A DNA stretch of 64,000 nucleotides, from the NCBI GenBank assembly GCA_020248405.1, contig JADCHQ010000042.1, forward strand, positions 228 through 64,227. Direction: 5' to 3'. This document shows, piece by piece, positions 18,364 to 63,123 of this stretch. This DNA comes from Rhodocyclaceae bacterium. GTDB taxonomy: Bacteria; Pseudomonadota; Gammaproteobacteria; Burkholderiales; Ga0077523. Position 1 is the first letter of the stretch. Each line of letters starts with the position of its first letter. The translations under genes and the position numbers were made by a program. The notes beneath the pieces are model-generated. The model did no database searches, was not told where the DNA came from, and was given only the letters and a program-made list of their open reading frames with translations.

Positions 18364-18373
18364 GAGCCGCTCC

Positions 18374-19270: not shown

Positions 19271-19297
19271 CACGCGGTCATCGCGCGCGGGCCTGGG

Positions 19298-42820: not shown

Positions 42821-43879
42821 CTATTTGAGCCTGACGAGCCGTTGCCGGGCTTTCTCGGCAGCGTCGGTCAACGGATGTTTGGCGATGAGTTCTTCGAGGG
42901 TGCGGCGGGCGCCGACGGTGTCACCCGACTCGCTCTGTGCATTGGCGAGAACCACCATGGCGTCTGGCACCTTGTTGGTTTCGGGATAGCTCACCAGCAG
43001 CTTCTGCAATGCCGCAATGGCGTTGGGATATTTCTTCAGCCGGAAATAGGCTTCGCCCAGCCAATACTGGGCGTTGGGCGTCAGCTCATGGAGCTTGTAG
43101 GTGCTCAGGAAGGCGTCGAAATCGTTCACCGCGCCCTGGGAGTCGCCCGCCCGGTGCTTGGCAAGGGCCGCATCGTAGGCCATGCGGGCCGCTTCTGATT
43201 CCCGCACGGGGGGGGCAGTCACACTGGCGGGCGCTGAAGCCGCGCCGGGCGGCGGTACCGCCGCGATCACGGGCGAAGGTATCGCCGCTGATTCGAGCTT
43301 CCGCAAACGAAGATCCAACTCGCCCAGTTGCGAAAGGCTGGCCGCCGCGCCACCAGCGGCTTCGAGTTTCTTGAGGCGGGCATCGATGTCAACGACGGCG
43401 TTGGTGCTGCCACCGGCACCTTCGAGCTTTTTCAGCCGGGCATCCAGGTCGGAAAACTGCTGGGCCGAAGCCGGGCTGGCCGCCTGGGCGGCGGCTTCGA
43501 GCTTCTTGAGGCGGCCCTCCACTTCGGCAAGCTGCGCAGCGAGCTTCTTGCGTGCTTCGGCATCTTCCTTGGCGAGTTGCTCGATCCGGCGCGCACGCCC
43601 GTCCAGGTCATTGTAGAGATCGCTCTGGCGGCGCTCGGACTTGTCCTGGCGATCCTTGAACACCTCCACGCGATTGCCGGTTTCCTCGATAGCACCGCGC
43701 AATTCCCGCACCTGGCGGCCGAGCGCGTCGATCTGCCCGGATAGATCGAGCAGCACGCGGTTTTCGCTCGGCACAGCCGCAGGCTTGGGCGCGGCGGGTT
43801 GCTGCGCCCAGGCGGGAGACGATACCGCCAGCAGCAGCGCCAGCGAGGCGGTGGACGAGACACGCAACACGGTTGTCAA
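42821..43879 (-). CDS. cpoB: Tol-Pal system protein CpoB/YbgF (coiled coil plus C-terminal TPR)
   Basis: Track ORF 42821..43960. The start must follow the pal stop (TTG 43879 or GTG 43870). Signal peptide, coiled-coil region, and C-terminal TPR block (AQYWLGEAYFRLKKYPNAIAALQKLLVSYPETNKVPDAMVVLA). Confidence 0.85.
   Translation of the reverse strand: MTTVLRVSSTASLALLLAVSSPAWAQQPAAPKPAAVPSENRVLLDLSGQIDALGRQVRELRGAIEETGNRVEVFKDRQDKSERRQSDLYNDLDGRARRIEQLAKEDAEARKKLAAQLAEVEGRLKKLEAAAQAASPASAQQFSDLDARLKKLEGAGGSTNAVVDIDARLKKLEAAGGAAASLSQLGELDLRLRKLESAAIPSPVIAAVPPPGAASAPASVTAPPVRESEAARMAYDAALAKHRAGDSQGAVNDFDAFLSTYKLHELTPNAQYWLGEAYFRLKKYPNAIAALQKLLVSYPETNKVPDAMVVLANAQSESGDTVGARRTLEELIAKHPLTDAAEKARQRLVRLK
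43289..43531 (-). repeat. Four degenerate tandem repeats inside cpoB encoding ..D.RLKKLE(A/G)AGG..
   Basis: Protein repeats AEVEGRLKKLEAAAQAAS / SDLDARLKKLEGAGGS / VDIDARLKKLEAAGGAAAS / GELDLRLRKLESAAIPS. The corresponding DNA units share TTCGAGCTTCTTGAGGCGG-like cores. Confidence 0.6.
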
Positions 43880-43889
43880 ACCCGCGCGA

Positions 43890-44549
43890 TTACTTGTCCA
43901 CGTCCGGGTAGATGAGGTCGCTGCGACGATTCTCGGCGTAGGAGTCCTCGTCCTTGCCAAGCGCCTTGGGCTTCTCTTCGCCGTAACTCACGGCCTCGAT
44001 GCGGCCTGCGGGCACGCCCAGCAGCACCATGGCGCGCTTGACGCCGTCAGCGCGCCGCTGCCCGAGGGCGAGGTTGTACTCGGTGGAGCCACGGTCGTCG
44101 CAGTGGCCCTCGATGCGCAGATTGTATTTGGGGTTGTCAATCAGGAAGCGGGCATGCAGATCGACGAGATCACGGTACTCGCCAGCGATCTCGAACTTGT
44201 CGAAATCGTAGAAGATGCTGCGCTTGGAGAGCGGGCTCGAAGGGTCACGCAGCTGGGTGGCCGCATCGGTGAGCGGCCGGCCGGACTCGCTGCCGCCGGG
44301 TAGTGGTTTAACCTCAGCGGCTGCCTGCTCGCGGCGGCGGCGCTCCTCTTCCTCGCGCAGGCGGCGGTTGAGCTCTTCCTGCTCGCGCTGGGCGGCGGCC
44401 ACACGGCGCTCCTCAGCCTCTTTCTTGCGCTGCGCCTCAAGCAGGTCGCGCTGCTCCACGTTGGCCTTGCTTTGCTCCTTGATGTCCTGGTTTGCGCAAC
44501 CGGCGGCCAGCAGCGCCAGCATCGACAGCAGCAGGATTCGTTTGATCAT
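43890..44549 (-). CDS. pal: Peptidoglycan-associated lipoprotein Pal
   Basis: Track ORF. Lipobox LLAAGC and an OmpA-like C-domain (IEGHCDDRGSTEYNLALGQRRA). Unusually long charged linker after the lipobox. Confidence 0.9.
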   Translation of the reverse strand: MIKRILLLSMLALLAAGCANQDIKEQSKANVEQRDLLEAQRKKEAEERRVAAAQREQEELNRRLREEEERRRREQAAAEVKPLPGGSESGRPLTDAATQLRDPSSPLSKRSIFYDFDKFEIAGEYRDLVDLHARFLIDNPKYNLRIEGHCDDRGSTEYNLALGQRRADGVKRAMVLLGVPAGRIEAVSYGEEKPKALGKDEDSYAENRRSDLIYPDVDK

Positions 44550-44569
44550 GGCAGGTTCCTCGGTGGGTT

Positions 44570-45880
44570 TCAGCGGGGTTTCAACATCGGCCCCCAGGCC
44601 GGCTCGCGCACGCTACCGCTCGAATCGGAGAGGCGCTGCTTGATCCGGCCATCACGCGATACAGCCGCGAGAATGCCACGCCCGTTGAGTTCGGAAGCGT
44701 AGAGGATCATGCGGCCGTTGGGGGAAAAGGTGGGAGAGGAGTCGTTGCGGCCGTCGGTGAGTAGTTGCGCGTTGCGGCTACCCACGTCCTGGATGGCCAC
44801 GTTGTAGCGGCCGGAATTGCGCTGGATGAAGCAGAAGCTGCGGCCATCCGGCGACCAGCGCGGCGTGACGTTGTAGTTGCCTTCGAAGGTGATGCGCTCG
44901 GCACCGCCGCCGCTGGCGGACATGCGGTAGATCTGCGGGCTGCCGCCGCGGTCGGAGGTGAACAGCAGCGAACGCCCGTCGGGAGACCAGTGGGCCTCGG
45001 TGTCGATGCCAGACGAATTGGTAAGGCGGGCAAGCTCGCTGCCATCGGCGCGCATGGTGTAGACCTGGGCAACCCCGTCGCGCGACAGGGTAAGCGACAG
45101 ACGATCGCCATCCGGCGCCCACGCCGGCGAACTGTTGGCGCCGTCGAAATTGGCCAGCACCCGCCTGCTCGCATCGGCGACGCTGTGCACGAATACCATG
45201 GGTTTGCGGCGTTCGAAAGACACATAGGCGATTCGGGCACCGTCCGGCGACCACGCTGGAGAGACGATGGGCTCGGGATGGGCAAAGATGAAATCCGCAT
45301 TGGCGCCATCGGCGTCGGCCACGTGCAGTTCGAAGCGATCACGGGCGCGCACCACGTAGCAGATGCGGGTGGAGAACACGCCCGCCTCGCCCGTGAGCTC
45401 TTCGTAGATGGTGTCGGCAATGCGATGAGCGGTACCGCGCAACTGGCTTGCGGGCACCATATAGCTGAAGCCGATGCGCTGCGTTTTCTTGAAGGCGTCC
45501 ATGAGCCGGAAGCGCACGGCCACGCGGCCGTCCGGGCGCTCGGCAATGATGCCCATGACCAGATTCTCCACGCCGCGATTGCCGAAATTGAACCAGTCCA
45601 CCTCCTCCGGCTCGGAAGGAAAGCGCGGCATCCAGCCAGCGGATTTCTCGCGGAACAAGCCGCTCCTGAGCAGGTCGGCGAGCACGATCTCGCTCACCCT
45701 GTCGGCATGGCGATCCTGATTGACGAAGGGCAGGACCGTGATGGGAATTTCGCGCCCGCTGCCGCCCACGATCTCGATGGTGAGAGCGGCCCTGGACGCT
45801 GGCGTCAGGGCCAGGGCGGCGCTTGCACCGGCGCCTTGGATCAGGCTGCGGCGCATCCACGAAATCGGCTTCTCGGACAT
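44570..45880 (-). CDS. tolB: Tol-Pal system beta-propeller protein TolB
   Basis: C-terminal 436 codons of track ORF 44570..46063. Repeated SPDG..(I/L)A(Y/F) propeller motifs. Confidence 0.95.
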   Translation of the reverse strand: MSEKPISWMRRSLIQGAGASAALALTPASRAALTIEIVGGSGREIPITVLPFVNQDRHADRVSEIVLADLLRSGLFREKSAGWMPRFPSEPEEVDWFNFGNRGVENLVMGIIAERPDGRVAVRFRLMDAFKKTQRIGFSYMVPASQLRGTAHRIADTIYEELTGEAGVFSTRICYVVRARDRFELHVADADGANADFIFAHPEPIVSPAWSPDGARIAYVSFERRKPMVFVHSVADASRRVLANFDGANSSPAWAPDGDRLSLTLSRDGVAQVYTMRADGSELARLTNSSGIDTEAHWSPDGRSLLFTSDRGGSPQIYRMSASGGGAERITFEGNYNVTPRWSPDGRSFCFIQRNSGRYNVAIQDVGSRNAQLLTDGRNDSSPTFSPNGRMILYASELNGRGILAAVSRDGRIKQRLSDSSGSVREPAWGPMLKPR

Positions 45881-45905
45881 GATGAAATTATAGGCTGGCG
45901 GGGCT

Positions 45906-46889
45906 TCAGTCCCGCGGCCGGAACAGCAGCCTGAGATCGCGCATCTGGGCGAACAGCTCCGGGTCGTCGGGCACAGGCAAAGGCTGGGCAAGCTCGATGG
46001 CCCGCTCCACTTCGCGGTCATAGGCGTTCGAACCGCTGGCGCGCACCAGCCGGACGGTGGCAACGGTTCCGTTCTTCAGCAATTTCACTTCGAACTCCGC
46101 CTGAGGGTTGCCAACGATGCCCGGGGGCACTACAACTTTTTCCCGGATGGCGTTGCGAATCCGGGCCGTGTACTCGTCGATGACCTTCTGCGCCGTTGCC
46201 GCCGCCTGGGCAGCGGCGCGCTTTTCGGCCTCGACGCGCTCGCGCGCGCGGCGCGCTTCGTCGATGGCTCGTTGCTGGGCAAGAAAAGCTTGTCGACTCT
46301 CTTCCTGGCGCCGCGCGTCGTCGGCGCGGCGCTTTGCCTCCTCTGCGCGGCGCGCCTCTTCCTGCCGCCGACGCTCTTCCTCGGCCATCCGGGCCGCTTC
46401 CGCGCGCTGACGCACCTGCTCCTTGCGTTGCGCCTCTTCGGCCTTGCGCTGCTGTTCTTTGTCCCGCACTTCGGCAGCTTTGCGCTCCTGAAGTTTCCGC
46501 TCCCGCTCGCGTCTTTCCCGCACGGCGATGTCGGGTCTGGCCACCGGTGGCTCGGGCGCGGGACGCACCTGGGCGGCAGGCGGCGGGGGTTTCGGGACCG
46601 GCGGTGCGGGCTTGGGCACCGGCGCCGGGGGCGGGGGCTCTGGCGGGGCCGTCTTGGGCTCAGGCGGGGCGGGTTCGGGCTCGGGCGCCGGTTCCAGCAT
46701 GGGTGGCGGCGGGGCAGCCACGGGGACACGCGGGCTGTTGGGAAGCGCCGCCACCAATTCCACTTCCACGCGCTCGGGCGGCTTGGTTTGCCAGGCCAGG
46801 CCAAGCACCAGGAACACGGCAAAGAGCAGGTGGACTGCGGCGGCCAGGGCCGCGGAGAGCAGATAGCCGGGCCGTTGCACGGCCTGCAT
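45906..46889 (-). CDS. tolA: Tol-Pal system protein TolA
   Basis: Track ORF. N-terminal TM helix, Pro-rich segment, long K/E/R/A-rich helix, conserved C-terminal domain. Positioned between tolR and tolB. Confidence 0.85.
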   Translation of the reverse strand: MQAVQRPGYLLSAALAAAVHLLFAVFLVLGLAWQTKPPERVEVELVAALPNSPRVPVAAPPPPMLEPAPEPEPAPPEPKTAPPEPPPPAPVPKPAPPVPKPPPPAAQVRPAPEPPVARPDIAVRERRERERKLQERKAAEVRDKEQQRKAEEAQRKEQVRQRAEAARMAEEERRRQEEARRAEEAKRRADDARRQEESRQAFLAQQRAIDEARRARERVEAEKRAAAQAAATAQKVIDEYTARIRNAIREKVVVPPGIVGNPQAEFEVKLLKNGTVATVRLVRASGSNAYDREVERAIELAQPLPVPDDPELFAQMRDLRLLFRPRD

Positions 46890-47320
46890 CAGTTACCGCC
46901 CTTGGCCTTTGTGAGCAGGCCGATGCGCTGCACGCCGGCCATCTGCAATTGGTCCATCACCTCCATCACCTTGCCGTATTCCACCCGCTGATCGGCAGCG
47001 ATCACCACTGGCCGCGTCTCGCCCGGGGTTTGGCTCTGGCCTTGCTTGACGATCGCGCCGAGCTCATCGAGGTTCACCCGCCGCTCGGAGGCCGTGCTGC
47101 CATCGCGCAGCGCCACCTGATTGCCCCCCAGAACGCGGACCTCGATGGGCTGGGCGGGCGCGGCCGATGACTTGCCCACCTGGGGCAGATCCACCTGGCC
47201 AGTGTTGATCATGGGCGCGGTGACCATGAATATCACCAGCAGCACCAGCATCACGTCAATGTAGGGCACCACGTTGATCTGGCTCATCACCCGCGAGCGC
47301 GAGCGGCGCGAGGTGTCCAT
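46889..47320 (-). CDS. tolR: Tol-Pal system protein TolR (ExbD family)
   Basis: Track ORF. MSQINVVPYIDVMLVLLVIFMV. Confidence 0.9.
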   Translation of the reverse strand: MDTSRRSRSRVMSQINVVPYIDVMLVLLVIFMVTAPMINTGQVDLPQVGKSSAAPAQPIEVRVLGGNQVALRDGSTASERRVNLDELGAIVKQGQSQTPGETRPVVIAADQRVEYGKVMEVMDQLQMAGVQRIGLLTKAKGGN

Positions 47321-47330
47321 GGCGCGCCCC

Positions 47331-48023
47331 CTAGTTGCTAGCCGACTGGCGCTGCAGCACGTTGGAGAACTCTTCCATGAAGCTCTCGAAGCGCGAGGCC
47401 AGCCGGTCCACGTCGCGCACGTGGTGGTTGAAGGCGATGACGGCGGGGATGGCAGCGAACAACCCGATGGCCGTGGCCACCAGCGCCTCGGCGATGCCCG
47501 GCGCCACGGCGGCCAGGGTGGCCTGGCTCACGTTGGCGAGGCCGCGGAACGAATTCATGATCCCCCACACCGTGCCGAACAGCCCCACGTAGGGGCTCAC
47601 CGAGCCCACGGTGGCGAGGAAGTTGAGGTGCGATTCGAGCTCGTCCATCTCACGCTGCCAGGTGGCGCGCATGGCGCGGCGGGCGCCATCCATGATGGTG
47701 GCAGTGCTCTGGCCCGACTGGCGCCGCAGGCGGAGGAATTCGCGGCTGCCGGCCAGGCAGATTTTCTCGAGGCTTCCGGCATGCTCGCCGTGGCTGGCGG
47801 CGTCCTGCAGCAAGGCGTTGAGGTCCTGCCCGCTCTGGGAGGAGCGGAAGCGGCGCTCGAATTCCTCGGTCTGCCGGCGCGCGGCGCGCAGCTGGAACAG
47901 CTTGTGGAAGATGAACCACCAGGACAGGAAGGACAGCGTGGCAAGCAGCGCCATGACGAGCTGCACGATCAGGCTGGCGTTGGCCACCAGGTGGAGAATG
48001 GACAGGTCGGTGGTGGCGTTCAT
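47331..48023 (-). CDS. tolQ: Tol-Pal system protein TolQ (MotA/ExbB family)
   Basis: C-terminal 230 codons of track ORF 47331..48146. SPYVGLFGTVWGIMNSF and the APGIAEALVATA block. ATGA overlap with ybgC. Confidence 0.95.
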   Translation of the reverse strand: MNATTDLSILHLVANASLIVQLVMALLATLSFLSWWFIFHKLFQLRAARRQTEEFERRFRSSQSGQDLNALLQDAASHGEHAGSLEKICLAGSREFLRLRRQSGQSTATIMDGARRAMRATWQREMDELESHLNFLATVGSVSPYVGLFGTVWGIMNSFRGLANVSQATLAAVAPGIAEALVATAIGLFAAIPAVIAFNHHVRDVDRLASRFESFMEEFSNVLQRQSASN

Positions 48024-48475
48024 TGCGGGTTCGCGCTTGGGTTGGGCAACCAATCGAGGAGGGCGGTGCGCAGCCGGGCGGGCAGGCGCACGGGGCGCAG
48101 TCTGGACGCCGACACACAGGCAAGATTCACTTCTGCGCGCATGCAATCCTCACTGCCCGACACCGTCTGGTGCAGCGTGAATTGCGCGCCGCCCACGGCC
48201 GTCACCGCCAGAGTGGCGTCGAGCAGTTCGTCGAGCAGCGCCGGACGCAGATACTCCAGCCGCAGGGCGCGCACGATGAACAGGCAGCCCTCTTCGGCCA
48301 CCAGGCGCGAGGCCGGGCAGCCCAGGGTGCGCAGCCATTCCATGCGGGCGCGCTCGAGAAAATCCAGGTAGGTGGCGTGGAACACGATGCCGCCGGCATC
48401 GGTGTCCTGGTAGTACACGCGCACCGGCACGGCGAAGCGGCGCGCCCCCGCCGGGGGCTTCAGGGCGCCGGGCAT
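48020..48475 (-). CDS. ybgC: Tol-Pal-associated acyl-CoA thioesterase YbgC (hotdog fold)
   Basis: C-terminal 151 codons of track ORF 48020..48700. VRVYYQDTDAGGIVFHATYLDFLERAR. Confidence 0.85.
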   Translation of the reverse strand: MPGALKPPAGARRFAVPVRVYYQDTDAGGIVFHATYLDFLERARMEWLRTLGCPASRLVAEEGCLFIVRALRLEYLRPALLDELLDATLAVTAVGGAQFTLHQTVSGSEDCMRAEVNLACVSASRLRPVRLPARLRTALLDWLPNPSANPQ

Positions 48476-48500
48476 GCGTTTGGCAAGGGATGCACCATGG

Positions 48501-49547
48501 TCACTCGGCGCGGCCCGCCCACAGGTCGGCAGTGCCCGCCACCGCAGGCGCCGCGAGGCCGAAGTGCCGCCACGCCGTGGCCGTGGCCATGCGGCCGCGC
48601 GGGGTGCGCTGCAGGTAGCCCTGCTGGATGAGAAAGGGCTCGAGCACGTCCTCGATGGTGTCGCGCTCCTCGCCGATGGCAGCGGCGAGATTGTCCACAC
48701 CCACGGGGCCGCCGGAGAACTTTTCCATCACGGCCAGCAGCAGCTTGCGGTCCATCACATCCAGGCCGGCGGCGTCCACGTCGAGCATGGCGAGCGCCGC
48801 GTCGGCCACGTCGCGGGTGATACGCCCGCCGGCCTTGACCTGGGCGTAGTCGCGCACGCGGCGCAGCAGCCGGTTGGCGATGCGCGGGGTGCCGCGCGAG
48901 CGCGCGGCAATCTCAAAAGCGCCGTCCTCGGCGATGTCGGCCTCCAGCAACCCAGCCGATCGCAGCACGATGCGGGTGAGCTCGGCGGCGCTGTAGAACT
49001 CCAGCCGCGAAACGATCCCGAAGCGGTCGCGCAGCGGGTTGGTGAGCATGCCGGCGCGAGTGGTGGCGCCCACCAGGGTGAAGGGGGGCAGGTCGAGCTT
49101 CACGGAGCGCGCCGCCGGGCCCTCGCCGATCATGATGTCGATCTGGTAGTCCTCGAGTGCCGGGTAGAGCACTTCCTCCACCACCGGGGAGAGGCGATGG
49201 ATCTCGTCGATGAACAGCACGTCGTTGGGTTCGAGGTTGGTGAGCAGCGCCGCCAGGTCGCCGGCGCGCTCCAGCACCGGCCCGGAGGTCTGGCGCAGGC
49301 CCACGCCCATCTCGCGGGCCACGATGTGCGCGAGGGTGGTCTTGCCCAGACCGGGCGGGCCGAACAACAGCACGTGATCGAGCGGCTCGCCGCGATTGCG
49401 GGCGGCCTCGATGAAGATGGAGAGCTGGCCGCGGATTTTTTCCTGGCCCACATACTCCTCGAGCTGGCGCGGGCGCAGGGCGCGCTCGATAACCTCCTCC
49501 TGGGGGCCCCTGGCGGCCGGGGCGATCAGGCGGTCGGTTTCGAGCAT
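48501..49547 (-). CDS. ruvB: Holliday junction branch-migration ATPase RuvB
   Basis: Track [40 protein letters not shown]. Confidence 0.97.
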
Positions 49548-49560
49548 CGGCGCGGGCGCA

Positions 49561-50343
49561 TCAACCGGGATTGGCCGCCCGGAAACGCGCCAGGTAGCCG
49601 TCGGCCAGGGCCGACTGCGCGCGCGCCGCCTCGGGCAAGGCGGATGCCACCCGGTCCATGCGGGCCGAGAAGATGCCGGTGACCTTGATCACCAACGCTT
49701 TCTGGTATTTAGCACCGAGGTCGGACAGGGCAAAGCGCTGGCCCTCCATGTTGTCGCTGCCGGCGGCGGAGAAGCGCATGGCGCGGTCTTCTTCGGCGTA
49801 CACGTAGGTAAGCGTCCTTTGCTCCTCTTCGGTGCCGCGGAAGCCGTCGATCAGCTTGCCCGACATGGTGAGGGCGCCGCCCACGTGAAACGCCACGTTC
49901 TGGTCGAGAATCTTGGCCTGCTTGCGGCCCACGTCGGTGGACAGATGGGCTGCGATGGCATCCAGTTCGGCGGGGGTGAAGCTCGCCAGCGCCATGCCGG
50001 ACCACTCGGGCGCGAGCCACTCCAGCGAGCTCCACTCGGCGCGCAGCCGCGGCATGAGCGATTCCACCATTTCGGCCTCGGCCGCATCCCAATGGCTGTC
50101 GCCCATGCGCCAGGCCTTGCCGAGCCCCTGTGCCCGGCCGCGGGCGGCCAGTTCGGCGCGCACCGCCAACACCGCCTGCTGCTTGAGGTAGCGATCGCCC
50201 AGGGCCACGGTGGTGCGCCAGGTATGGGCGGAGAGCATGGAGGCGGCGGAGGCTCGCGCATCGGCGTGGGCCGGCGCGCAGAGGAGCGATGCTGCAAGGG
50301 TGGCGGCGCACAGCAGCACGCGCGAGGCATAGGCGAGGGACAT
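49561..50343 (-). CDS. Signal-peptide protein of unknown function, paralog 1 (contains a DUF2059-like FTPAELDAI...G segment)
   Basis: Track ORF 49561..50406. Start at ATG 50343. Signal peptide [27 protein letters not shown]. Ends 13 nt before the ruvB start. Confidence 0.65.
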
Positions 50344-50439
50344 GGGGAAGGATCGGAAGTTTGAACGCGCCGCCGGCGCAGGCCGCGCGCGCTGGTTGAT
50401 CGTCACAAAATTATAGACGCGGCCGCGGGCGCGACACCC

Positions 50440-51228
50440 TCACCGCTGCCGGAAGGCTGCGATATGGGGCTCCGCCAGGGCCGCGGCGGCGGCGAATGCC
50501 GGCGAGATGCGCGCCTGCGCGGTGTCCATGCGGGCGTTGGCGGCAGCCACCACGCGAAATGACACCTCGCGGAAATACTTCCGGCCCGGATCGGTCCAGA
50601 TGAACAGCTCGGCCCGCGGGTCCGCGGAGAAGTCGTAGCGGATCTTCTCCAGCAGGGGTGCGGCAACGCTTTGCAGCAGCGCGCGGTCCACCTCGGCGCC
50701 AGGACGGTCGAGGCGGGCGCGATCGGTGAAGGTGAGACGGGTCATCACCAGTTCGCCCACGAACCAATCCATGGTGGCCGCCAGGTAGGGGCCGGGCGGG
50801 CTCGTGAGGGTGTCGAGAATCCACTGTTGCTCTCCGCCCGAGAGCACGGCGCGCGTCTGGGCGGCCCAGGTGTCGCGCCACCAGGCCAGCGCCTCGGTCT
50901 CGCCGCTGCCAGCCTCGGCGGCGGTCAGCATGGCCCCCACCATGGCAGCCTCGGCAGCCTGCCACTCGGGCGCGGCGGGCGTCCAGCGCGGGCCGAGTTT
51001 TTCCTCGCGCCCCGCCGAAGCAAGGTGGCCACGGGCCAGGGCGGCGGCGCTCTGGCGCAGGTAGATGCGGCCCCAGGCGCGGGCGAGCGCATCGCCGTGC
51101 AGGGCTGCGATACGCATGGCGGTGTCTCCCTCGGCGCGGCTCGCGGGTGCCGCCGCCAGCAGCAGCGCCGCCAGCCCGGTCCACAAGACGCGCAAGCCCG
51201 CGGCTCCCTGGCGCAGGATCGTTCTCAT
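50440..51228 (-). CDS. Signal-peptide protein of unknown function, paralog 2
   Basis: Track ORF 50440..51234. Signal peptide LWTGLAALLLAAAPASRA. The start abuts or overlaps the ruvA stop. Colinear with paralog 1 (IYLRQSAAALARGHLA...EWQAAEAAMVGAM versus [16 protein letters not shown]...[13 protein letters not shown]). Confidence 0.65.
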   Translation of the reverse strand: MRTILRQGAAGLRVLWTGLAALLLAAAPASRAEGDTAMRIAALHGDALARAWGRIYLRQSAAALARGHLASAGREEKLGPRWTPAAPEWQAAEAAMVGAMLTAAEAGSGETEALAWWRDTWAAQTRAVLSGGEQQWILDTLTSPPGPYLAATMDWFVGELVMTRLTFTDRARLDRPGAEVDRALLQSVAAPLLEKIRYDFSADPRAELFIWTDPGRKYFREVSFRVVAAANARMDTAQARISPAFAAAAALAEPHIAAFRQR

Positions 51229-51230
51229 GG

Positions 51231-51812
51231 TCACACCTTGGAGAGCAGCCGCAGGGCCTGGCGGATGGCGTCGGGCACGGCCAGCCCGGGCTCGATGCGG
51301 CCCAGGGCAGCACGCGCCTCCTTGTCGTTGTAGCCCAGGGCCAGCAGGGCATTGAGGGCATCGCTGCCCGCCGGCACCGCGCCGCCACCGGCCAGCGCCA
51401 CCCCGGGCGCGAAGGAAAGCTTGTCCTTCAGCTCGAGCACCAAGCGCTCAGCGGTTTTCTTGCCGATGCCTGGCACGCGCGTCAGGCGAGCGCTGTCCTG
51501 CTGGCCGATGGCGGCGTACAACTCGTCCACCGACAGCCCCGAGAGCAGCGCCAGCGCCGTGCGCGTGCCGACGCCGGTGATCCTGAGCAACTGGCGGAAC
51601 ACCTGGCGCTCGGACTCGGTGGCGAAACCGAACAGCAAGTGCGCATCCTCGCGCACCACCAGATGGGTGAACAGACGCACCTCCTGGCCGATGGCCGGAA
51701 GCTGGTAGAAGGTGCTCATGGGCACGTCCAGCTCGTAGCCCACGCCCTGCACCTCCACCACGATGGCCGGCGGAGACTTCTCCACCAGCCGGCCGGCAAG
51801 GCGTGAGATCAC
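51231..51812 (-). CDS. ruvA: Holliday junction DNA helicase subunit RuvA
   Basis: C-terminal 193 codons of track ORF 51231..52064. GTG 51812 overlaps the ruvC stop. [11 protein letters not shown]..., [20 protein letters not shown]. Confidence 0.9.
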
Positions 51813-52330
51813 ACCAGCCTCCCGCCACGCACGCGATAGCCCGCCGTGGCCAGGGAACCCAGGCCAAGGCCGCCATGGGCATGACAGATGGCGCAGGCCA
51901 GCGCGTCGGCGGCATCGGCGCCGGGCAGGCCGGGTAGCGCCAGCAGCCGGCGCACCATCTCCTGCACCTGCTCCTTGCGCGCGTGGCCGTTGCCCACCAC
52001 CGCCTGCTTCACCTGCAAGGCGGTGTACTCGTGCACCGGCAATCCGCGCGAGACGGCGGCGCACACCGCCGCGCCGCGCGCCTGACCGAGCTTGAGGGTG
52101 GCCTGGGCATTGACGTTCACGAACACCTGCTCCACGGCCACCTGCTCGGGCCCGCCCTGCTCGATGACCTGAGCGAGCCCGTCGAGAATGGACTTGATGC
52201 GCTCGGGCAGGCTGGCGGTGTCGTCGGTGCGGATGCGCCCGCTGGTGACGTAGGCGAGCTTGCGCCCCTCCAGGCCCACGATGCCGTAGCCGGTAATGCG
52301 CAGCCCGGGGTCGATGCCGAGAATGCGCAC
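51809..52330 (-). CDS. ruvC: Crossover junction endodeoxyribonuclease RuvC
   Basis: C-terminal 173 codons of track ORF 51809..52483. GTG 52330 ([16 protein letters not shown]). [13 protein letters not shown]. Confidence 0.9.
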
Positions 52331-52340
52331 GGCGCGCCTC

Positions 52341-53072
52341 TCACGCCTCGTCCATGGCGGCGTTGGTGTAGACCTCCTGCACGTCGTCCAGCGACTCCAG
52401 CGCGTCGAGCAGCTTCTGCATCCTGGCGGCATCATCGCCCGCGAGCGCGGTCTCGGAGCCGGGGCGCATGGTGATCTCGGCAAAGGCGGGCTTGAGGCCG
52501 GCCTTCTGGAGCGCCTCTTTCACCGCCACGAAATCGTTGTTCGGGGCGGTGAGCACCTCGATGGAGCCGTCGTCGTTGCTCACCACGTCCTCGGCGCCCG
52601 CCTCGAGGGCCACCTCCATGACCTGGTCCTCGGAGGCGCCCGGCTCCAGCACCAGCTGGCCGCAGTGCTTGAACAGGAAAGCCACAGAGCCATCGGTGCC
52701 CAGGTTGCCGCCGTGCTTGGCGAAGGCGTGGCGCACGTCGGCCACGGTGCGGGTGCGGTTGTCGGTCATGCAGTCCACGATCACCGCCACTCCGCCGATG
52801 CCGTAGCCCTCGTAGCGCACCTCCTCGTAGTTGACGCCTTCGAGCGCACCGGTGCCGCGCTTGATGGCGTTCTCGATGGTGTCCTTGGGCATGTTCTGCT
52901 CGCGGGCCTTGTCGATGGCCAGGCGAAGCCGCGGGTTGGAGCCGGCATCACCGCCGCCCAGCCGGGCGGCCACGGTCACTTCCTTGATGAGTCGCGTGAA
53001 AATCTTGCCGCGCTTGGCGTCGGCGGCGGCCTTCTTGTGCTTGATGTTGGCCCACTTGCTATGCCCTGCCAT
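52341..53072 (-). CDS. yebC: YebC/PmpR-family DNA-binding regulator
   Basis: Track [29 protein letters not shown]. Confidence 0.95.
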
Positions 53073-56598: not shown

Positions 56599-59223
56599 TC
56601 AGGCGGCCGGCGCCAACTCCTGCAGCGGTTCGGTACCCAGCACCCGGGCGCGCAGACGCTCCGGGGACACGAGCAGCAGCATCGGGACCTCCGCGCCAGG
56701 CTTTTCGGAGCGCGGCGTGAGCACGCCATCGAGCAGTTCCACCATCCCGGTGCCCATCATGGGCACCGGGCGCACCAGCGCCCGCGCCAGTTCCGGAATG
56801 TCGCCCAGGGCATCCACCAATACGCCGAAGGTCTGGCGGCCGTCCTCAGGGCGCATGACGATGATCTGCTGCGCCGCCGGCTCCGCCCCCGGCGCCTTGC
56901 CACGCCACTCCGGCAGATCGTAGACGGGAATCGACGCGTGGCCGTAGACCGTGAGACCCGCCACGCCGCGGGCTGCGAGCCCGGGCAGGCGGGTGAAGTG
57001 CTCCAGACCGATGGCTGTTTCCACGGTTTGCGTGGGCAATCCGTACCAGCCCTCGCCCACATAGAAGGTGGCCACCTCGATGCGCGCATCCTCGGTTTCC
57101 GGGCGCGGCCATGACCATTGGCCGGCGTCTTCACTGCCGCGCGCACCGGCGCCGCGCGCCGCCGCCAGAGCATCGCCAAGCGGCACCAGGATGATGGCGG
57201 CGATGTCGTTGCGGTAAGCGTCTTCCTCGGATTTGTATTCCCGATACCCGGAGGACATGCGCGCCCCCACGGCCCAGAGAGTGCCATCGAGCCTCGCGAT
57301 CATGCTCACCTCCTGCCCAGGGGCGAGCGCACGGATGCGGGTGTCGAGGTCGAAGGAAGCACCCGGTGCGAAGCGCTCTTCAGTGCTGGCCACGATGCGC
57401 CCGTCGCGCTGCACGAACAGGCCGATGCAACCCTTGCGCACCTCGCCACCGCCATCCCTGGGCAAGGCATCTGCCAGCATGGCGCGGAACTGCGGCTCGC
57501 CGTCGAACACGATCGCCACGCCGCCCACATTGCCGGCACCGTGCTGGCCGCGCACGGCCGCGCAATAGATGTAGGTGTGCCGGTCACCGTACAACGGTGA
57601 GGCGGCAAACCCGGACACACAGTAGTCCTGCGTGTCTCGCAGCCGCAGGGTGCGCGCTACCCAGTCCTCCTCCAGGCGGGTGCCAAGGCGTGCGCGCATG
57701 GTTTCGTTGGAAACCGCCACCACGGCACCGCTGCGGTCGAACAGCAGCAGGTCCGTGTAGACGGTATAGAGCCGGTTGATGGCCGAGAGCACGGTGGACA
57801 TCTGCTCGCATTTCCCGGCGTCGATGGCGCCGCCCGAGAGCAGATCGCGGAACAGGCTCGTGAGCGCCCACCAGCGGCAATCGTTGGCCCGTTCGTAGAG
57901 GTTGCGATCCATGATGTCGATGGCCAGCGCCGCCTGGGCAGCGCAGTCGTCCAGCATGGCCGACACCACGGTCTGGTTGAGGTGCCGGATGGAGCGGGTG
58001 AATACGTCGCGGGTGCGCGCCCCGGTACGCCCGATCTCCCACAGCAGCGCCCGCGAGAACACGCTGTTGGCGCTGCCGGCCTCGTGCGCCTGGCGCACGT
58101 TGCCATTCCACACCGACCGCGTGAGATCGGCCTGAATGTGCTCGGCGCGGGTGGGAATTTCCCGCAGCGATTGGCCGAACAGTTGCTCGCTGCGCATCAG
58201 CGCGGCGAGCACGCTGGCATCCACACCCTCACGTGACTCGGTGTCGTCGGAATCGAAGGCGTATTCCACGGGAACCATGGCGTGACCGCGCCAGCCGGGG
58301 CCCATGTACCCCTGGTAACCCACCGTGTCGCAGGTGGCAGCCACGTACTCGCGTCCTCCGAAGCGGAAGCGGCCAGTGGCCTCTCCCGCATCTTGTTCGA
58401 AGCGCACACCCGCCGGGGCATGGTGCGGATCGCTGCTGGCCACCACTCGCCCCTGGCTATCGATGAGCGCGATGAGCGTCCAGTCCGCGGCGCTGCGCAG
58501 ATTGGAGAAGATCTTGTCGCACTCGTCCTCAAGGCGAAAGCACAGGCACAGCACGGCCACGGGACGGGAACCGTCGGGCGCCATGACGCGATGGGAGTAC
58601 ACCAGCTGCGCGCCCGCGCCGGGCATCAGGTCCAGCGGACGGTACGTTTCCAGGTAGGCAGCCTCGGTTTCGAGCGCCTCGCGCACCAGCGCATCGCGGG
58701 TGTGCGTGACCGGCGACTCCTGCAACCGCGCCAGGATCTTTCCATCGAGACCGATGAGGATCACGTCGTGGTACACGGAGTACTTGCGCACATATTCGCG
58801 CATGCGCGCCAGGGTGACGTGGCCGTCCGCGGCATCGGGGTCCGCGGTGGCGCTCACCGCGAAAGCGGCCAGGTCGCTGTCCATGGCCAGGAATCCGATG
58901 TCGGCAGTGCGCTCGAAGAGGTTGCGCACCAGAATGTCGATGGCCACCTGGGCGCGAAAGCGGATGTGGATCTCGGTCTTGCGGCGCAATTCTCCCGCCA
59001 GGCTCGCCAGGAGGCGGGAGGACAGGTCCTCGAAGCTGGCTCGGGTTTCACTGATGTCGATGCCGGTGCCGGAGAGTTGGCCCAGCAGCGCCAGGTTGTT
59101 CCATACCGCCTGCAGTTTCTGCAGCGCTTCGCGATACTCCTCCACCTGACTCATGTGCTTCATGCTGGAGGCCACGCTGCGGGGAACCGCGATCCCCTTG
59201 TACACCGTCATCTCGTCGGTCAT
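56599..59223 (-). CDS. Cytoplasmic protein with two tandem sensor-like modules fused to a C-terminal CheW-like domain
   Basis: Track ORF 56599..59421. Start moved to ATG 59223 because the upstream 66 codons are rich in rare A/T-ending codons. aa ~713-860 align block-by-block with the adjacent CheW. aa ~92-323 and ~431-682 are internal duplicates. No TM segment is visible. Confidence 0.8.
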   Translation of the reverse strand: MTDEMTVYKGIAVPRSVASSMKHMSQVEEYREALQKLQAVWNNLALLGQLSGTGIDISETRASFEDLSSRLLASLAGELRRKTEIHIRFRAQVAIDILVRNLFERTADIGFLAMDSDLAAFAVSATADPDAADGHVTLARMREYVRKYSVYHDVILIGLDGKILARLQESPVTHTRDALVREALETEAAYLETYRPLDLMPGAGAQLVYSHRVMAPDGSRPVAVLCLCFRLEDECDKIFSNLRSAADWTLIALIDSQGRVVASSDPHHAPAGVRFEQDAGEATGRFRFGGREYVAATCDTVGYQGYMGPGWRGHAMVPVEYAFDSDDTESREGVDASVLAALMRSEQLFGQSLREIPTRAEHIQADLTRSVWNGNVRQAHEAGSANSVFSRALLWEIGRTGARTRDVFTRSIRHLNQTVVSAMLDDCAAQAALAIDIMDRNLYERANDCRWWALTSLFRDLLSGGAIDAGKCEQMSTVLSAINRLYTVYTDLLLFDRSGAVVAVSNETMRARLGTRLEEDWVARTLRLRDTQDYCVSGFAASPLYGDRHTYIYCAAVRGQHGAGNVGGVAIVFDGEPQFRAMLADALPRDGGGEVRKGCIGLFVQRDGRIVASTEERFAPGASFDLDTRIRALAPGQEVSMIARLDGTLWAVGARMSSGYREYKSEEDAYRNDIAAIILVPLGDALAAARGAGARGSEDAGQWSWPRPETEDARIEVATFYVGEGWYGLPTQTVETAIGLEHFTRLPGLAARGVAGLTVYGHASIPVYDLPEWRGKAPGAEPAAQQIIVMRPEDGRQTFGVLVDALGDIPELARALVRPVPMMGTGMVELLDGVLTPRSEKPGAEVPMLLLVSPERLRARVLGTEPLQELAPAA

Positions 59224-59400: not shown

Positions 59401-59449
59401 ACAAAAAGGCACGGGCTGCATGCCGCTGGGAAGCGACGTGTAGCCCGTG
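59401..59449 (-). terminator. Candidate intrinsic terminator after cheW
   Basis: Minus strand: CACGGGCT-(24 nt with inner GTCGC/GCGGC pairing)-AGCCCGTG followed by CCTTTTTGT. Located about 35 nt after the cheW stop. Confidence 0.4.
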
Positions 59450-59481: not shown

Positions 59482-59994
59482 TCAAGCGGCCAGGACCTCG
59501 TCCATGAGCGCCATGTCCGAGGACAACATCAGGCGCTCGATGTCCACCAGGATCAGCATGCGCTGGTCCACCGACCCGATGCCCGTCAGGTAACCCGTGT
59601 CGAAGCTCGCGGCGAACGCCGGCGCGGGCTTGATCTGCTCAGGTTGCAGCGTCATTACGTCGGACACGGAGTCCACCACGATGCCCACCACGCGGTTGCC
59701 GAGGTTAAGCACAATCACCACCGTGAACTGGTCGTAATTGGCCTGCCCCACCTCGAACTTGATGCGCAAGTCGATGATCGGCACGATCACCCCGCGCAGG
59801 TTGATGACCCCCTTGATGAAGTCCGGCGCGCGCGCGATGGCGGTGACGGCCTCGTAACCGCGGATCTCCTGCACCTTGAGGATCTCGATGCCGTACTCCT
59901 CCTGCCCGAGGCGGAAGGTGAGGAACTCCCCGGTTACTCCGGGGTTGCGCTCGGCCGCGGCGGCGCGAGAGCCGTTGAATTGCTGTGGCGTCAT
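59482..59994 (-). CDS. cheW: Chemotaxis coupling protein CheW
   Basis: Track ORF 59482..60033. ATG 59994 is preceded by [54 protein letters not shown]. Confidence 0.9.
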
Positions 59995-60045
59995 GGTGTG
60001 TTCCTGCGTGAGATGGGTGGTGGAACGCGACAAGCCTGGCAGCGC

Positions 60046-61989
60046 TCAGAAGTCTTGCCAGTCATCGTCGCCTCCAGCCACCTTGGCCGTCTTGCCGGCA
60101 GCGGTTGCCCGCCCGCCCGAGGGCGCTGGCGCCTTGGCAGCGGGCTTTTTCCCCAACCGGGTGACGTTCCTGGCGCGATCCGGTCCACGGCGCTCCTCGC
60201 CTTCCCAGCCGCCCTGGGCATCTGCATCGGCGGAGGCCTCCGCCATGGCTGCGGCCGCGGTGCTAAGGCGATAGCGCGACACGGCCTCGGCAAGCGACCG
60301 GGCCTGCTCCTCCAGGCTCTCGGCCGCGGCGGCGGCCTGCTCCACCAGGGCGGCGTTCTGCTGGGTGACGTCATCCACCTGGGTGATGGCCTCGTTCACC
60401 TGCTCGATACCGCGGCTCTGTTCCAGGGAGGCGTCGGCGATCTCGGCCATGATGCCGGTGACTTTCTTCACGGACGCAACGATCTCGTCCATGGTCTTGC
60501 CGGCCTCGTCCACCAGCCTGGAGCCGGAATCCACCTTGGCCACCGAGTCGCCAATGAGGTCCTTGATCTCCTTGGCGGCCGTGGCGCTGCGTTGGGCGAG
60601 ATTGCGCACTTCCGTGGCCACCACCGCGAAGCCGCGGCCCTGCTCGCCCGCGCGGGCTGCTTCGACCGCCGCGTTGAGCGCCAGGATGTTGGTCTGGAAC
60701 GCGATGCCATCGATCACCGAGATGATGTCGGCAATCTTCTTGCTGCTGGCGGAAATGGCGCCCATGGTCGAAACTACCTGGCGCACTACCTCACCACCCC
60801 GCACCGCCACATCCGAGGCGCCGGCCGCCAGTTGATTGGCCTGCCGCGCGTTCTCGGCGTTCTGCTTCACGGTGGAGGTGAGTTCCTCCATGGCGGAGGC
60901 GGTTTCCTCCAGGCTGGAGGCCTGCTCTTCCGTGCGGCTCGAGAGGTCTGTATTGCCGGAGGAGATCTCCTTGGCGGCCGTGGTGACCAACACCGCCGAG
61001 TCGCGCATGCGAGCAACGATCTTCTCCATCTCGTCCACCAGCTGGTTGACGCTACTGCTCAAGGTGAGCACATCGCCCTTCTTGCCTTCGGTGGGGATGC
61101 GGCCCGAGAGATCGCCACTCAAGGCGCCCTGCACCAGTTGTTTCATTTCGGCCACGGCCTGATCCAGCGCCATGGCCTCGATCTGCGCGGTGATGTCCTG
61201 GGCGAACTTCACCACCTTGATGGGCTTGCCGGTGGCATCGAAGATCGGGTTGTAGGAGGCTTGGATCCACACCACCTTGCCGTCCTTGCCCAGGCGCTTG
61301 TACTGGCCGCTGTCGAATTTTCCTTCGGCCAGCTTCGCCCAGAACTTGCGATACTCGTCGCTCTGCTTGTAAGCGGGCTCCACAAACATGCTGTGGTGCT
61401 TGCCGACGATTTCCTCGCGCGTGTAACCCACCACGCTCAGGAAGTTGGCGTTGGCGTCGAGGATGGTGCCGTCGAGGGTGAACTGGATCACCGCCTGCGA
61501 CTTGTCGATAGCCTGCACCTGGCCGCGCAGATCGGCCTCGCGCAGCTGCGCCTCGGTGACGTCAGATGCGTACTTGACCACCTTGAACACCTTGCCATCG
61601 GCGTCCACCAGCGGCACATAGCTGGCGTGAATCCACACCTCCCTGGCGCCCTTCGCGAGCCGCTTGTAGAGGCCCACATGAAATTCACCGCGATCTAGGT
61701 TTCCCCAGAAGGCGCGGTACTCCGCCGACCTGGCGTAGGCCGGCTCCACGAACATGCTGTGGTGCTGGCCGCGAATCTCGTCCAGGGAATACCCCACGGT
61801 GGCCAGGAAGTTTTCATTGGCGGTCAGAATCTCGCCACCAGGCTTGAACTCAATCACTGCCTGGGAGCGGTCAAGCGCTGCAAGGCGGGCGGCCATTTCC
61901 GACACTTCCAGTGCATTCCCCGGCCCGGCCTTGACTTGCCCTGCAGTGGCGTCAGGCGACCCCAGCAAGGCATTGAAAAAGTGCTTCAT
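60046..61989 (-). CDS. Soluble methyl-accepting chemotaxis protein with two N-terminal PAS domains and a C-terminal DWQDF pentapeptide
   Basis: Track ORF, 647 aa. Two similar PAS units (...[21 protein letters not shown]...[10 protein letters not shown]... and ...[21 protein letters not shown]...[10 protein letters not shown]...). MCP signalling hairpin ([41 protein letters not shown]). No TM helix. Ala/Gly/Lys-rich tail ending in DDDWQDF. Confidence 0.95.
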
Positions 61990-62400: not shown

Positions 62401-63123
62401 TCAGCACTGCAGATACATGTTCAGCCTCTTCGCTGCGTTGCGAAGATGGGCCTCCGCGGCACTGCCCGCGGCAGCCGCATCGCCCGCCTCAATGGCATTG
62501 AAGATGGCTTTGTGCTCATCCTGCACTGCCTGGATCAGGTCGCTGTAGTTAGCGGCGGTGTTTCGGCGGGCACGGCGGATAAGCCTGCGAACATGCTGTT
62601 CCAGATAGCCGTTCAGCGCGTTGAAGTGGGGGTTGCTCGCAGCCTCAACGATCGCCCGGTGAAAGGCGAAGTCCTCTTCCTCCCCAGGTTCGTCGTGGAC
62701 GATCGCGTACTCCATGCCTATCAGAGCGCGCTTGATACGCTTGATGTCTTCCGGCGTGCGGCGAAGCGCCGCATAGCGCGCGGCAGCCGCTTCAAACGTG
62801 ACCAGCAATTCGATGACATGCGCAAGCCCTTCGGCATCGTCCAGCGAAGCATTGCGCAGCCGGAACGTGTGCCGCGTGCCACGTTCGTTAACGAACACGC
62901 CGCGGCCCTGCTGCGCATACACGAGCCCTTCGGATTTCAGCTGCGACAGCGCTTCTCGCACCGCCGAGCGCCCCACGGAAAACCGCTCACACAGCTCGCT
63001 CTCGCTCGGTAACCTGGCGCCGGGGCCCAGCTTCCCGGTTTCGATCTGCCGGTTGAGCCAGCGGACGATTTTGTCCGTCACGGACTTGTTTGTCCGTGGC
63101 GGCGGCTTGTTCCTGGCGGCCAT
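62401..63123 (-). CDS. GntR-family (FadR-subfamily) transcriptional regulator
   Basis: Track ORF. Winged HTH (LPSESELCERFSVGRSAVREALSQLKSEGLV) and an all-helical FCD-like C-domain. Confidence 0.9.
   Translation of the reverse strand: MAARNKPPPRTNKSVTDKIVRWLNRQIETGKLGPGARLPSESELCERFSVGRSAVREALSQLKSEGLVYAQQGRGVFVNERGTRHTFRLRNASLDDAEGLAHVIELLVTFEAAAARYAALRRTPEDIKRIKRALIGMEYAIVHDEPGEEEDFAFHRAIVEAASNPHFNALNGYLEQHVRRLIRRARRNTAANYSDLIQAVQDEHKAIFNAIEAGDAAAAGSAAEAHLRNAAKRLNMYLQC

Follow-up and report, generated by a model that had tools for sequence, protein, structure and literature searches.

The gene described here occupies positions 56599-59223 of a stretch of 64,000 nucleotides from a Rhodocyclaceae bacterium (contig JADCHQ010000042.1; the whole stretch is called the window below). 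It encodes a protein, the target, in which two sensor modules with a predicted dCache fold precede a domain like that of the chemotaxis adaptor CheW. The gene and its parts are laid out as follows (aa, amino acids).

56599..59223, minus strand: target coding sequence, 874 aa plus stop, complete, tandem dCache sensor fused to a CheW-like domain (translation, homologs, GC content at third codon positions, GC3)
59092..59223, minus strand: N-terminal cap, aa 1-44, formed by a short beta-hairpin and the beginning of the first helix; M5 (59211) is an alternative start (alignment; DSSP of the model)
58222..59091, minus strand: sensor module 1, aa 45-334, predicted dCache fold in which a long helix leads into two PAS-like alpha/beta lobes (Pfam, AlphaFold2 model, Foldseek, hhalign boundaries)
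58879..58947, minus strand: signature helix motif of module 1, VAIDILVRNLFERTADIGFLAMD, aa 93-115 (alignment)
58051..58221, minus strand: helical segment between the modules, aa 335-391, with a conserved VWNGN motif (N373, G374) (alignment; DSSP of the model)
57157..58050, minus strand: sensor module 2, aa 392-689, a second copy of module 1, predicted dCache fold (hhalign; DSSP pattern)
57862..57927, minus strand: signature helix motif of module 2, LAIDIMDRNLYERANDCRWWAL, aa 433-454, nearly invariant in the family (alignment)
57076..57171, minus strand: flexible linker, aa 685-716, poorly conserved, residues 687-701 with a predicted local distance difference test (pLDDT) below 50 (alignment; model)
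56653..57075, minus strand: CheW-like domain, aa 717-857 (Pfam PF01584, matches to CheW in the PDB, ratio of nonsynonymous to synonymous substitution rates, dN/dS)
56941..56943, minus strand: codon for G761, the equivalent of Arg62 in E. coli CheW; the NLRG motif reads VYGH (residue audit)

An initial annotation, made from the sequence alone, had predicted an 874-aa product at 56599-59223. This was borne out, with the gene on the minus strand; a plus-strand reading was ruled out as its translation is full of stops. The longest minus-strand open reading frame (ORF) has 940 aa and begins with an ATG at 59421, adding 66 residues N-terminal to the target start. It was rejected: the added residues are found in no homolog, and its ATG lies inside a terminator-like hairpin (59408-59424). 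Because the majority of homologs begin at the equivalent of Met5 in the alignment, the true start is placed at either 59223 or 59211.

Stand-alone Cache proteins and separate CheW genes both exist, and a gene fusion, a frameshift or an assembly error might have joined one to the other; the initial annotation had pointed to the region around 57100..57200 for such a fault. None was found. GC3 in the target frame is 0.77-0.91 over the full gene length and continuous along it, thus there is no sign of a frameshift near 57100-57200. More than 100 independent full-length homologs of 856-938 aa, from isolates and from metagenomes, have the same architecture, and the parts flanking the junction are under purifying selection. 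In 80 metagenome loci the ORF lengths are bimodal (27 at 640-700 aa, 47 at 820-900 aa and none between). Finally, P0001, an 874-aa protein from a JGI metagenome, i.e. from another sample, is 100% identical to the target. These data refute an artefact, the probability of which is practically nil.

The N-terminal 700 residues were assigned by several routes. The Pfam comparison that had been suggested for this region returned a match of dCache_1 (PF02743) to aa 134-311 at 37.9 bits, under the 45-bit cut-off. The same model is matched by 25 of the 26 relatives with E-values down to 7e-15, and some of them score above the cut-off (54.1 and 45.7 bits). Module 2 gave weak Cache_WalK and sCache_3_2 matches only. 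When one half was compared with the other, BLASTP aligned 81 aa at E 6e-7, and hhalign aligned aa 45-334 with aa 392-689 over 271 columns at a probability of 99.2% and E 9.3e-20. This points, well beyond chance, to a true internal duplication. An AlphaFold2 model was built on a 26-sequence family alignment (mean pLDDT 83.6, predicted template modelling score 0.79). According to DSSP, each module of the model begins with a long helix, behind which come two alpha/beta lobes; the stretch 687-701 is disordered and residues 714-862 form a CheW fold. Among the top Foldseek matches in the PDB was a group of dCache domains (8w7p, DctB, rpHK1S-Z16, PctA, Tlp3, Mlp37 and McpH) with template modelling (TM) scores of 0.6-0.7, normalised to the target. 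Judged by the model, each module is a full dCache, or double PDC, so the protein would comprise four PAS-like lobes plus CheW. A search of the PDB sequences with the family profile returned nothing that matches the N-terminal 700 aa.

The usual context of dCache_1, extracytoplasmic and between two transmembrane helices, was not found in the target. No transmembrane helix was detected: the top 19-residue Kyte-Doolittle window reaches 1.65 and is located in the charged, proline-containing linker. Because of this the protein is predicted to be cytoplasmic. MCPsignal (PF00015), HAMP and Response_reg gave no Pfam match in the target, and no NCBIfam family matches it. The initial annotation had proposed two copies of one module in about 700 aa, a PDC/Cache-type fold, and the absence of a transmembrane helix, of the hairpin of a methyl-accepting chemotaxis protein (MCP) and of a receiver domain; on all these points it agrees with the hhalign, AlphaFold2 and Foldseek, hydropathy and Pfam results, respectively.

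The sensor half is the better conserved part of the protein. Its mean pairwise identity is 57%, compared with 37% for the CheW half, and its dN/dS is 0.07-0.30. Near-invariant motifs in the family are DIxxRNLFERTADIGFLA, VWNGN, DIMDRNLYERANDCRWWAL, GYQGYxGPGW and SxGYREYK. In module 1, D96, R100, N101, E104, R105 and D108 are conserved to at least 90% in both subfamilies, i.e. the fused one and a stand-alone one without CheW. Aromatic and charged residues on the beta-strands and long helices, in the region of the putative ligand pocket, are conserved in both modules and both subfamilies. A cofactor bound by Cys and His residues (C226, C449, H314) was considered and rejected because these residues vary in the stand-alone subfamily.

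At the C-terminus, aa 717-857 score 49.3 bits with Pfam CheW (PF01584; cut-off 23.5 bits), which also matches all 26 relatives. A profile of 26 family members matched solved CheW structures (2qdl, 1k0s, 2ho9, 3ja6, 8c5v) with E 8e-13 to 2e-9; it found no other convincing match in the PDB, the P5 domain of CheA being hit at E ~0.1 only. Foldseek matched the two-subdomain beta-barrel to 2qdl, 6s1k_C and 8c5v_E with target-normalised TM-scores of 0.72-0.76. The bona fide CheW-like domain that had been proposed for the C-terminus is thus above the Pfam threshold and has the CheW fold in the model. A match 'block for block' to the neighbouring CheW had also been claimed. This holds at the level of motifs; over the whole alignment identity is a mere 27% (143 aa, BLASTP E 5e-6). 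Positions in CheW were numbered via this neighbouring, E. coli-type CheW (offset 18), and the residue identities agree with PMC13098124. Gly57 and Gly99 are invariant in the CheW-like domain, and Glu38 is kept in 22 of 26 relatives and shifted by one residue in the target. The positions of V36, V87, V88, V105 and V108 are hydrophobic throughout, with Leu at V105 and mostly Ile at V108 in the family; V36 and V87 are positions of the CheW/receptor interface (PMC13098124). In the ten pairs with unsaturated dS, the dN/dS of the domain is 0.06-0.23, a range much like that of the sensor half.

The family is large. An exhaustive search with aa 1-700 yielded 351 clusters at 50% identity (E ≤1e-30), and the CheW-less stand-alone form as query gave 4,430 clusters at 90% identity (E ≤1e-20). 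In a scan of one genome per species at least 585 pattern-matched stretches were confirmed; with up to two stretches per gene this corresponds to roughly 300 or more species. Hosts are found in the Betaproteobacteria (Rhodocyclales, Gallionellaceae, Sulfuricellaceae, Methylophilaceae, Burkholderiales), the Gammaproteobacteria (Methylococcales, Allochromatium, Steroidobacter, Glaciecola) and the Alphaproteobacteria (Xanthobacteraceae), and further in Campylobacterales, Deferribacterales and Verrucomicrobia. In the sources its members go by no other names than 'chemotaxis protein CheW', 'chemotaxis signal transduction protein', 'cache domain-containing protein' and 'hypothetical'. The literature was searched for Cache-CheW, for sensory CheW, for CheW within nif clusters and for Cache domains in the cytoplasm, and the family was not described in what was found. 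The architecture had initially been taken as undescribed. With respect to the literature this stands, as no Cache-CheW paper was found; the databases, on the other hand, hold thousands of such proteins with precomputed dCache_1 and CheW matches. The family is real, large and uncharacterised; both domain types and, with CheV, the idea of a regulated adaptor are already known.

In complete genomes of Methylomonas, Methylomarinum and Agarivorans the short form stops right behind module 2 (...GYREYKxxxDYxNDxxAxxFIP), and 20 of 28 short representatives make up one clade. Among representatives of atypical length no other output domain was found on the tandem sensor; it carries CheW or nothing. Stand-alone forms were seen in L088 (8001-10025), L089, L090, L091, L092 and about 25 other metagenome loci, and they are common in Methylococcales and other Gammaproteobacteria.

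A survey of the loci brought up a link to nitrogen fixation that had not been part of the initial annotation. nif genes lie within 10 kb of the gene in 12 of ~83 distinct genome loci and in 10 of 80 metagenome loci (~13% overall; at least one metagenome locus duplicates a genome locus). For a random gene we would roughly expect ~2% by our own estimate, several-fold less than the 12-15% observed. Since related species do not count as independent cases, some five or six independent arrangements are the safer count. In Sulfuricellaceae the order is nifB-fdx-FeS-LRV-nifZ-nifZ-[gene]-nifT-SIR2-GNAT, on one strand and with gaps of 80 bp and 27 bp (Pfam-verified), and this arrangement recurs in L054, L113 and L116. 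In Methylobacter the gene is downstream of nifHDK-fdx-nifY-DUF6129-LRV, in three Rhodocyclaceae-type loci (L014, L114, L129) it comes after nifENX, and in Gallionellaceae it adjoins nifQ-flavodiiron-nifB. In three Methylomonas-type loci (L088, L091, L092) the stand-alone form is directly upstream of nifB, which starts ~320 bp downstream. Genes for a SIR2-like protein and a GNAT acetyltransferase were seen just downstream, after nifT, in L013 (11214-12639), L019, L054, L113, L116, L028 and L035.

The 350 nt upstream of the start were searched for a sigma-54 element (TGGCAC-N5-TTGC, at most one mismatch, GG and GC fixed). Of 162 loci, 23 have a -24/-12 element 37-108 nt upstream of the start, where the loci's own background would give 2.4 hits; none of the 162 loci had one farther upstream within the 350 nt. 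In L028, L117 and L070 a NifA-type upstream activating sequence, TGT-N10-ACA (TGTCGCAAAGCCGACA, TGTCGCAAAGCTCACA and TGTAACGATTCCGACA), is located 80-92 nt upstream of the sigma-54 element, i.e. ~150-180 nt before the start of the gene. The remaining 20 sigma-54 loci have no NifA-type site; for this reason a different activator, of NtrC or flagellar type, may act there. By position in a nif operon and/or a NifA site plus sigma-54 element, a minority of the relatives, not the copy in this window, are candidates for the nif regulon.

The chemotaxis genes next to the target are the following.

59408..59424, minus strand: terminator-like hairpin with a T-run, GGCATGCAGCCCGTGCC then TTTTTGTGGT, between cheW and the target (sequence scan)
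59482..60033, minus strand: canonical CheW, 183 aa, E. coli-type, retains NLRG/Arg62 (Pfam CheW 138 bits; NCBIfam PRK10612 234 bits, below the 260-bit cut-off)
60046..61989, minus strand: soluble PAS-PAS-MCP chemoreceptor, 647 aa, AerC-like architecture, no transmembrane helix (Pfam; MCPsignal 188 bits)
62401..63123, minus strand: regulator of the GntR/FCD family, upstream of the receptor gene (Pfam)

On the minus strand the order is GntR/FCD regulator, PAS-PAS-MCP, cheW, a gap of 258 bp and the target, followed by a convergent EamA transporter gene. The hairpin lies within the gap, 58 nt past the cheW stop and ~185 nt before the target start. Its position between the two genes suggests that the target may form a transcription unit of its own; such sites are no more numerous in the region than chance would give, and it is the position alone that is suggestive. 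Neither a sigma-70 nor a sigma-54 consensus was found in the gap. The signalling domain of the MCP aligns end to end with Tar/Tsr-type models, and its C-terminus DWQDF (60046-60063, minus strand) fits the xWxxF pentapeptide that tethers CheR and CheB in E. coli-type receptors; the ortholog in the alphaproteobacterial locus L078 ends in QWQEF. In the 64-kb window no CheA, no further che genes and no nif genes were found. By ORF translation only, positions 42821-53072 appear to contain a Tol-Pal-like cluster (tolQ-, tolA-, tolB-, pal- and ybgF-like), ruvB, ruvA, ruvC and a regulator of the YebC family. Given these housekeeping genes, the chemotaxis trio stands by itself and does not belong to a che or flagellar region.

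The triad of PAS-PAS-MCP, CheW and target is shared by this window, its closest relatives L007 and L008, and L078, in which the order is CheW-MCP-target, unlike here, with the MCP 55% and the target 44% identical. In a tblastn screen of 87 loci, CheW or MCP beside a target homolog was found in L007, L008 and L078 only; the gene table adds L001, where an MCP gene directly downstream of the target homolog had escaped tblastn. L001 also contains a split AerC-like receptor (18355-20017), a 173-aa PAS protein and an adjacent MCP-signalling protein of 388 aa, between two nifE/nifN-like genes and 6 kb from the target homolog. A conserved chemotaxis operon was considered and rejected: the neighbourhoods of P0019, P0036, P0004 and P0006 differ, and most loci are orphans. 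The neighbourhood survey that the initial annotation had proposed thus did not reveal conserved chemotaxis neighbours. The largest recurrent cluster of neighbouring proteins was at first a candidate for MCPs. This was rejected, too, as 15 of its 21 members are PAS-GGDEF-EAL proteins and three are MCPs. Within three genes of the target homolog in 81 loci, PAS-GGDEF-EAL proteins are the most frequent recurrent neighbours (these 15 proteins, in the 21-member cluster, which spans 15 loci), and histidine-kinase/response-regulator genes are next (9 of the 81 loci). The enrichment looks modest, and we regard it as too weak a basis for conclusions.

In our view the best explanation, held tentatively and a little short of probable, is that the target is a soluble, cytoplasmic sensor-adaptor that docks on chemoreceptor arrays and provides them with an input from the internal state of the cell. 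The two dCache modules probably pack together so that one chain imitates the dCache homodimer of transmembrane receptors, and would bind an intracellular small molecule. The flexible linker of ~30 residues would tether this sensor to the CheW-like domain, which could dock on the array baseplate, i.e. on receptor tips and/or the rings of CheA-P5 and CheW. Ligand occupancy of the docked sensor may then bias array assembly or kinase coupling, and thereby possibly CheA. Such an input would run alongside the receptors, not in their place. Because the gene appears to belong to a nif/sigma-54 regulon in many lineages, the cue is probably tied to nitrogen fixation or to the energy/nitrogen status. In this window the protein would be paired with the AerC-like soluble PAS-PAS receptor and the canonical CheW.

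Several observations weigh against a sensor-adaptor. More than 80% of the loci are without a chemotaxis gene within 10 kb, and a dedicated CheA is nearby in 0 of ~160 loci. The copy in this window has neither a sigma-54 promoter upstream nor nif genes in its vicinity. The stand-alone tandem dCache, ~670 aa without CheW, is common; for this reason the tandem sensor must have a function that is independent of CheW. The position of Arg62 is Gly in the target and Arg in 5 of 26 relatives; G63 is kept in 11 of 26, and Gly63, N60, I65 and G41 of canonical CheW are changed as well. In CheW, the Arg62-Glu38 pair aligns the receptor- and kinase-binding sites, and the R62A mutant still binds its partners, yet does not support chemotaxis (PMC3828127). 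With Arg62 lost, the canonical Glu38-Arg62 bridge that is needed for coupling cannot form. Since the domain is under purifying selection, it appears to be maintained for some function; since Arg62 is lost, this is probably not the textbook coupling.

The stand-alone form and the missing Arg62 leave open two alternatives, one concerned with localisation only and one with a primary role in nitrogen fixation or nitrogen status. The CheW-like domain might be an address label that brings the protein to the array or the pole, as in positioning proteins; the sensor would then have a job of its own, such as binding or buffering of a metabolite or contact with a protein partner, and kinase control would be unaffected. 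In favour of this, the stand-alone form is common and makes up mainly one clade, Arg62 is lost and the R62A mutant behaves as described above, and conservation is higher in the sensor half than in the CheW half. We nevertheless consider it somewhat unlikely. The sensor half shows no sign of an output or enzymatic domain, dCache domains of the kind matched by Foldseek are known as ligand sensors, not as effectors, and there is no evident reason for such a protein to be at arrays. The second alternative dispenses with chemotaxis altogether: the target would be an accessory protein of nitrogen fixation or nitrogen status, its CheW-like beta-barrel having been recruited as a generic module for protein interaction. 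About 87% of the loci are not nif-linked, the hosts include Methylobacillus, Methylophilus, Steroidobacter and Glaciecola, which are not known to us as diazotrophs, and this window has an adjacent MCP and CheW in place of nif genes. Moreover, the closest matches of the C-terminal domain, in sequence and structure, are bona fide CheW and no other family. Thus such a role is unlikely, despite the positions within operons in several lineages (between nifZ and nifT, after nifHDK and nifENX, or beside nifB/nifQ), the NifA-type promoters, the stand-alone form directly upstream of nifB and the divergence of the CheW domain.

The initial annotation had suggested that sensory input may enter the CheA-CheW lattice directly and not through a receptor. 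In such a version the sensor-CheW protein would attach directly to CheA-P5 and control the kinase with no methyl-accepting receptor involved. The protein has no MCP hairpin, its gene is usually an orphan and not tied to one receptor gene, and it retains the hydrophobic and Gly residues that are characteristic of CheW, all of which would suit this proposal. It is quite improbable all the same, because control of CheA in all studied systems needs receptor trimers plus CheW (review PMC13098124), no locus has a dedicated CheA nearby, and the gene adjoins a receptor and a normal CheW here. In addition, Arg62 and its interface-1 neighbours N60 and I65 are changed, and the same tandem sensor exists without CheW. 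Specific support for an input to CheA without any receptor was not obtained.

Input to the arrays is thought to come through receptors, with CheW treated as a passive coupler, and CheV is, to our knowledge, the only well-known regulated adaptor. If true, a widespread CheW-like protein with its own intracellular double-dCache sensor would be a new input point in a textbook pathway and by far the largest example of dCache domains that work inside the cell. The recurrent placement in nif operons and the NifA/sigma-54 promoters point to a way in which diazotrophs may couple motility to the nitrogen-fixing state. In its widest form this means that a class of sensor-bearing CheW proteins provides direct cytoplasmic metabolite input independent of the ligand-binding domains of receptors, that in diazotrophs it is expressed together with nitrogenase via NifA and sigma-54 so that cells steer by an internal cue related to nitrogen fixation, and that the stand-alone form is the ancestral or free version of the sensor; taken as a whole this is doubtful. 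Even without any contact to CheA, the family would be a highly conserved, unstudied and nif-associated one in many environmentally important Beta- and Gammaproteobacteria, i.e. iron oxidisers, sulfur oxidisers, methanotrophs and Rhodocyclales.

How does the target compare with known systems? Like canonical CheW (E. coli 2ho9/6s1k; T. tengcongensis 2qdl), its C-terminal 140 aa pass the CheW hidden Markov model and superpose (TM-score ~0.75, target-normalised), and they retain Gly57, Gly99 and the hydrophobic positions of the groove. Unlike canonical CheW, the target has ~700 extra residues at the N-terminus, lacks a conserved Arg62 and differs at G63, N60, I65 and G41. With CheV, a CheW-receiver fusion, it shares a CheW-like adaptor and a regulatory domain that could modulate coupling; in contrast to CheV, it has no receiver domain (no Response_reg match), and its regulatory part is N-terminal and has the fold of a ligand sensor, not of a phospho-acceptor. 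The predicted modules resemble the dCache_1 domains of DctB (3e4o/3by9), PctA (5ltx), Tlp3 (4xmq), Mlp37 (5ave) and McpH (8bmv) in the long helix and the two PAS-like lobes. Those domains belong to transmembrane proteins, whereas the target, by prediction cytoplasmic, has no flanking transmembrane helices, carries two modules on one chain and has signature motifs of its own (RNLFERTAD, DRNLYERANDCRWW, GYQGY, GYREYK). RxWY, which we take to be the amino-acid-binding motif of dCache_1AA, is absent from the target by reading of its sequence. Two dCache domains on one chain are also present in alpha2delta of voltage-gated calcium channels, which gave weak Foldseek matches; the global superposition is poor (root-mean-square deviation ~31-33 Å), and alpha2delta is extracellular, eukaryotic and of unrelated arrangement.

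Re-use of an extracellular-type dCache fold inside the cell has a precedent in the intracellular, stand-alone dCache_1AM proteins of Actinobacteria, and intracellular dCache has been called rare (bioRxiv 10.1101/2023.04.06.535858). Theirs is a single dCache paired with a transcription factor; the target is a tandem with unrelated motifs. Fusion of a sensor domain to a CheW-like domain has a precedent as well: a survey of CheW-like domains with more than 100 Pfam architectures reports rare PAS-CheW fusions as a possible chemosensory input, sets rare architectures aside and assigns no function to them, and 'Cache' occurs 0 times in the passages searched (bioRxiv 10.1101/2022.05.07.491035). AerC of Azospirillum brasilense, a soluble energy-taxis receptor with two PAS domains that is active under N2 fixation, guides the cells to microaerobic zones for N2 fixation (PMC2886117, PMC8561660). 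With its MCP signalling hairpin and PAS/FAD sensing AerC is a true receptor, whereas the target combines predicted dCache sensors with a CheW-like output. What they may have in common is a cytoplasmic sensory input to chemotaxis that is linked to nitrogen fixation, and the receptor encoded two genes upstream of the target has the same soluble PAS-PAS-MCP architecture as AerC.

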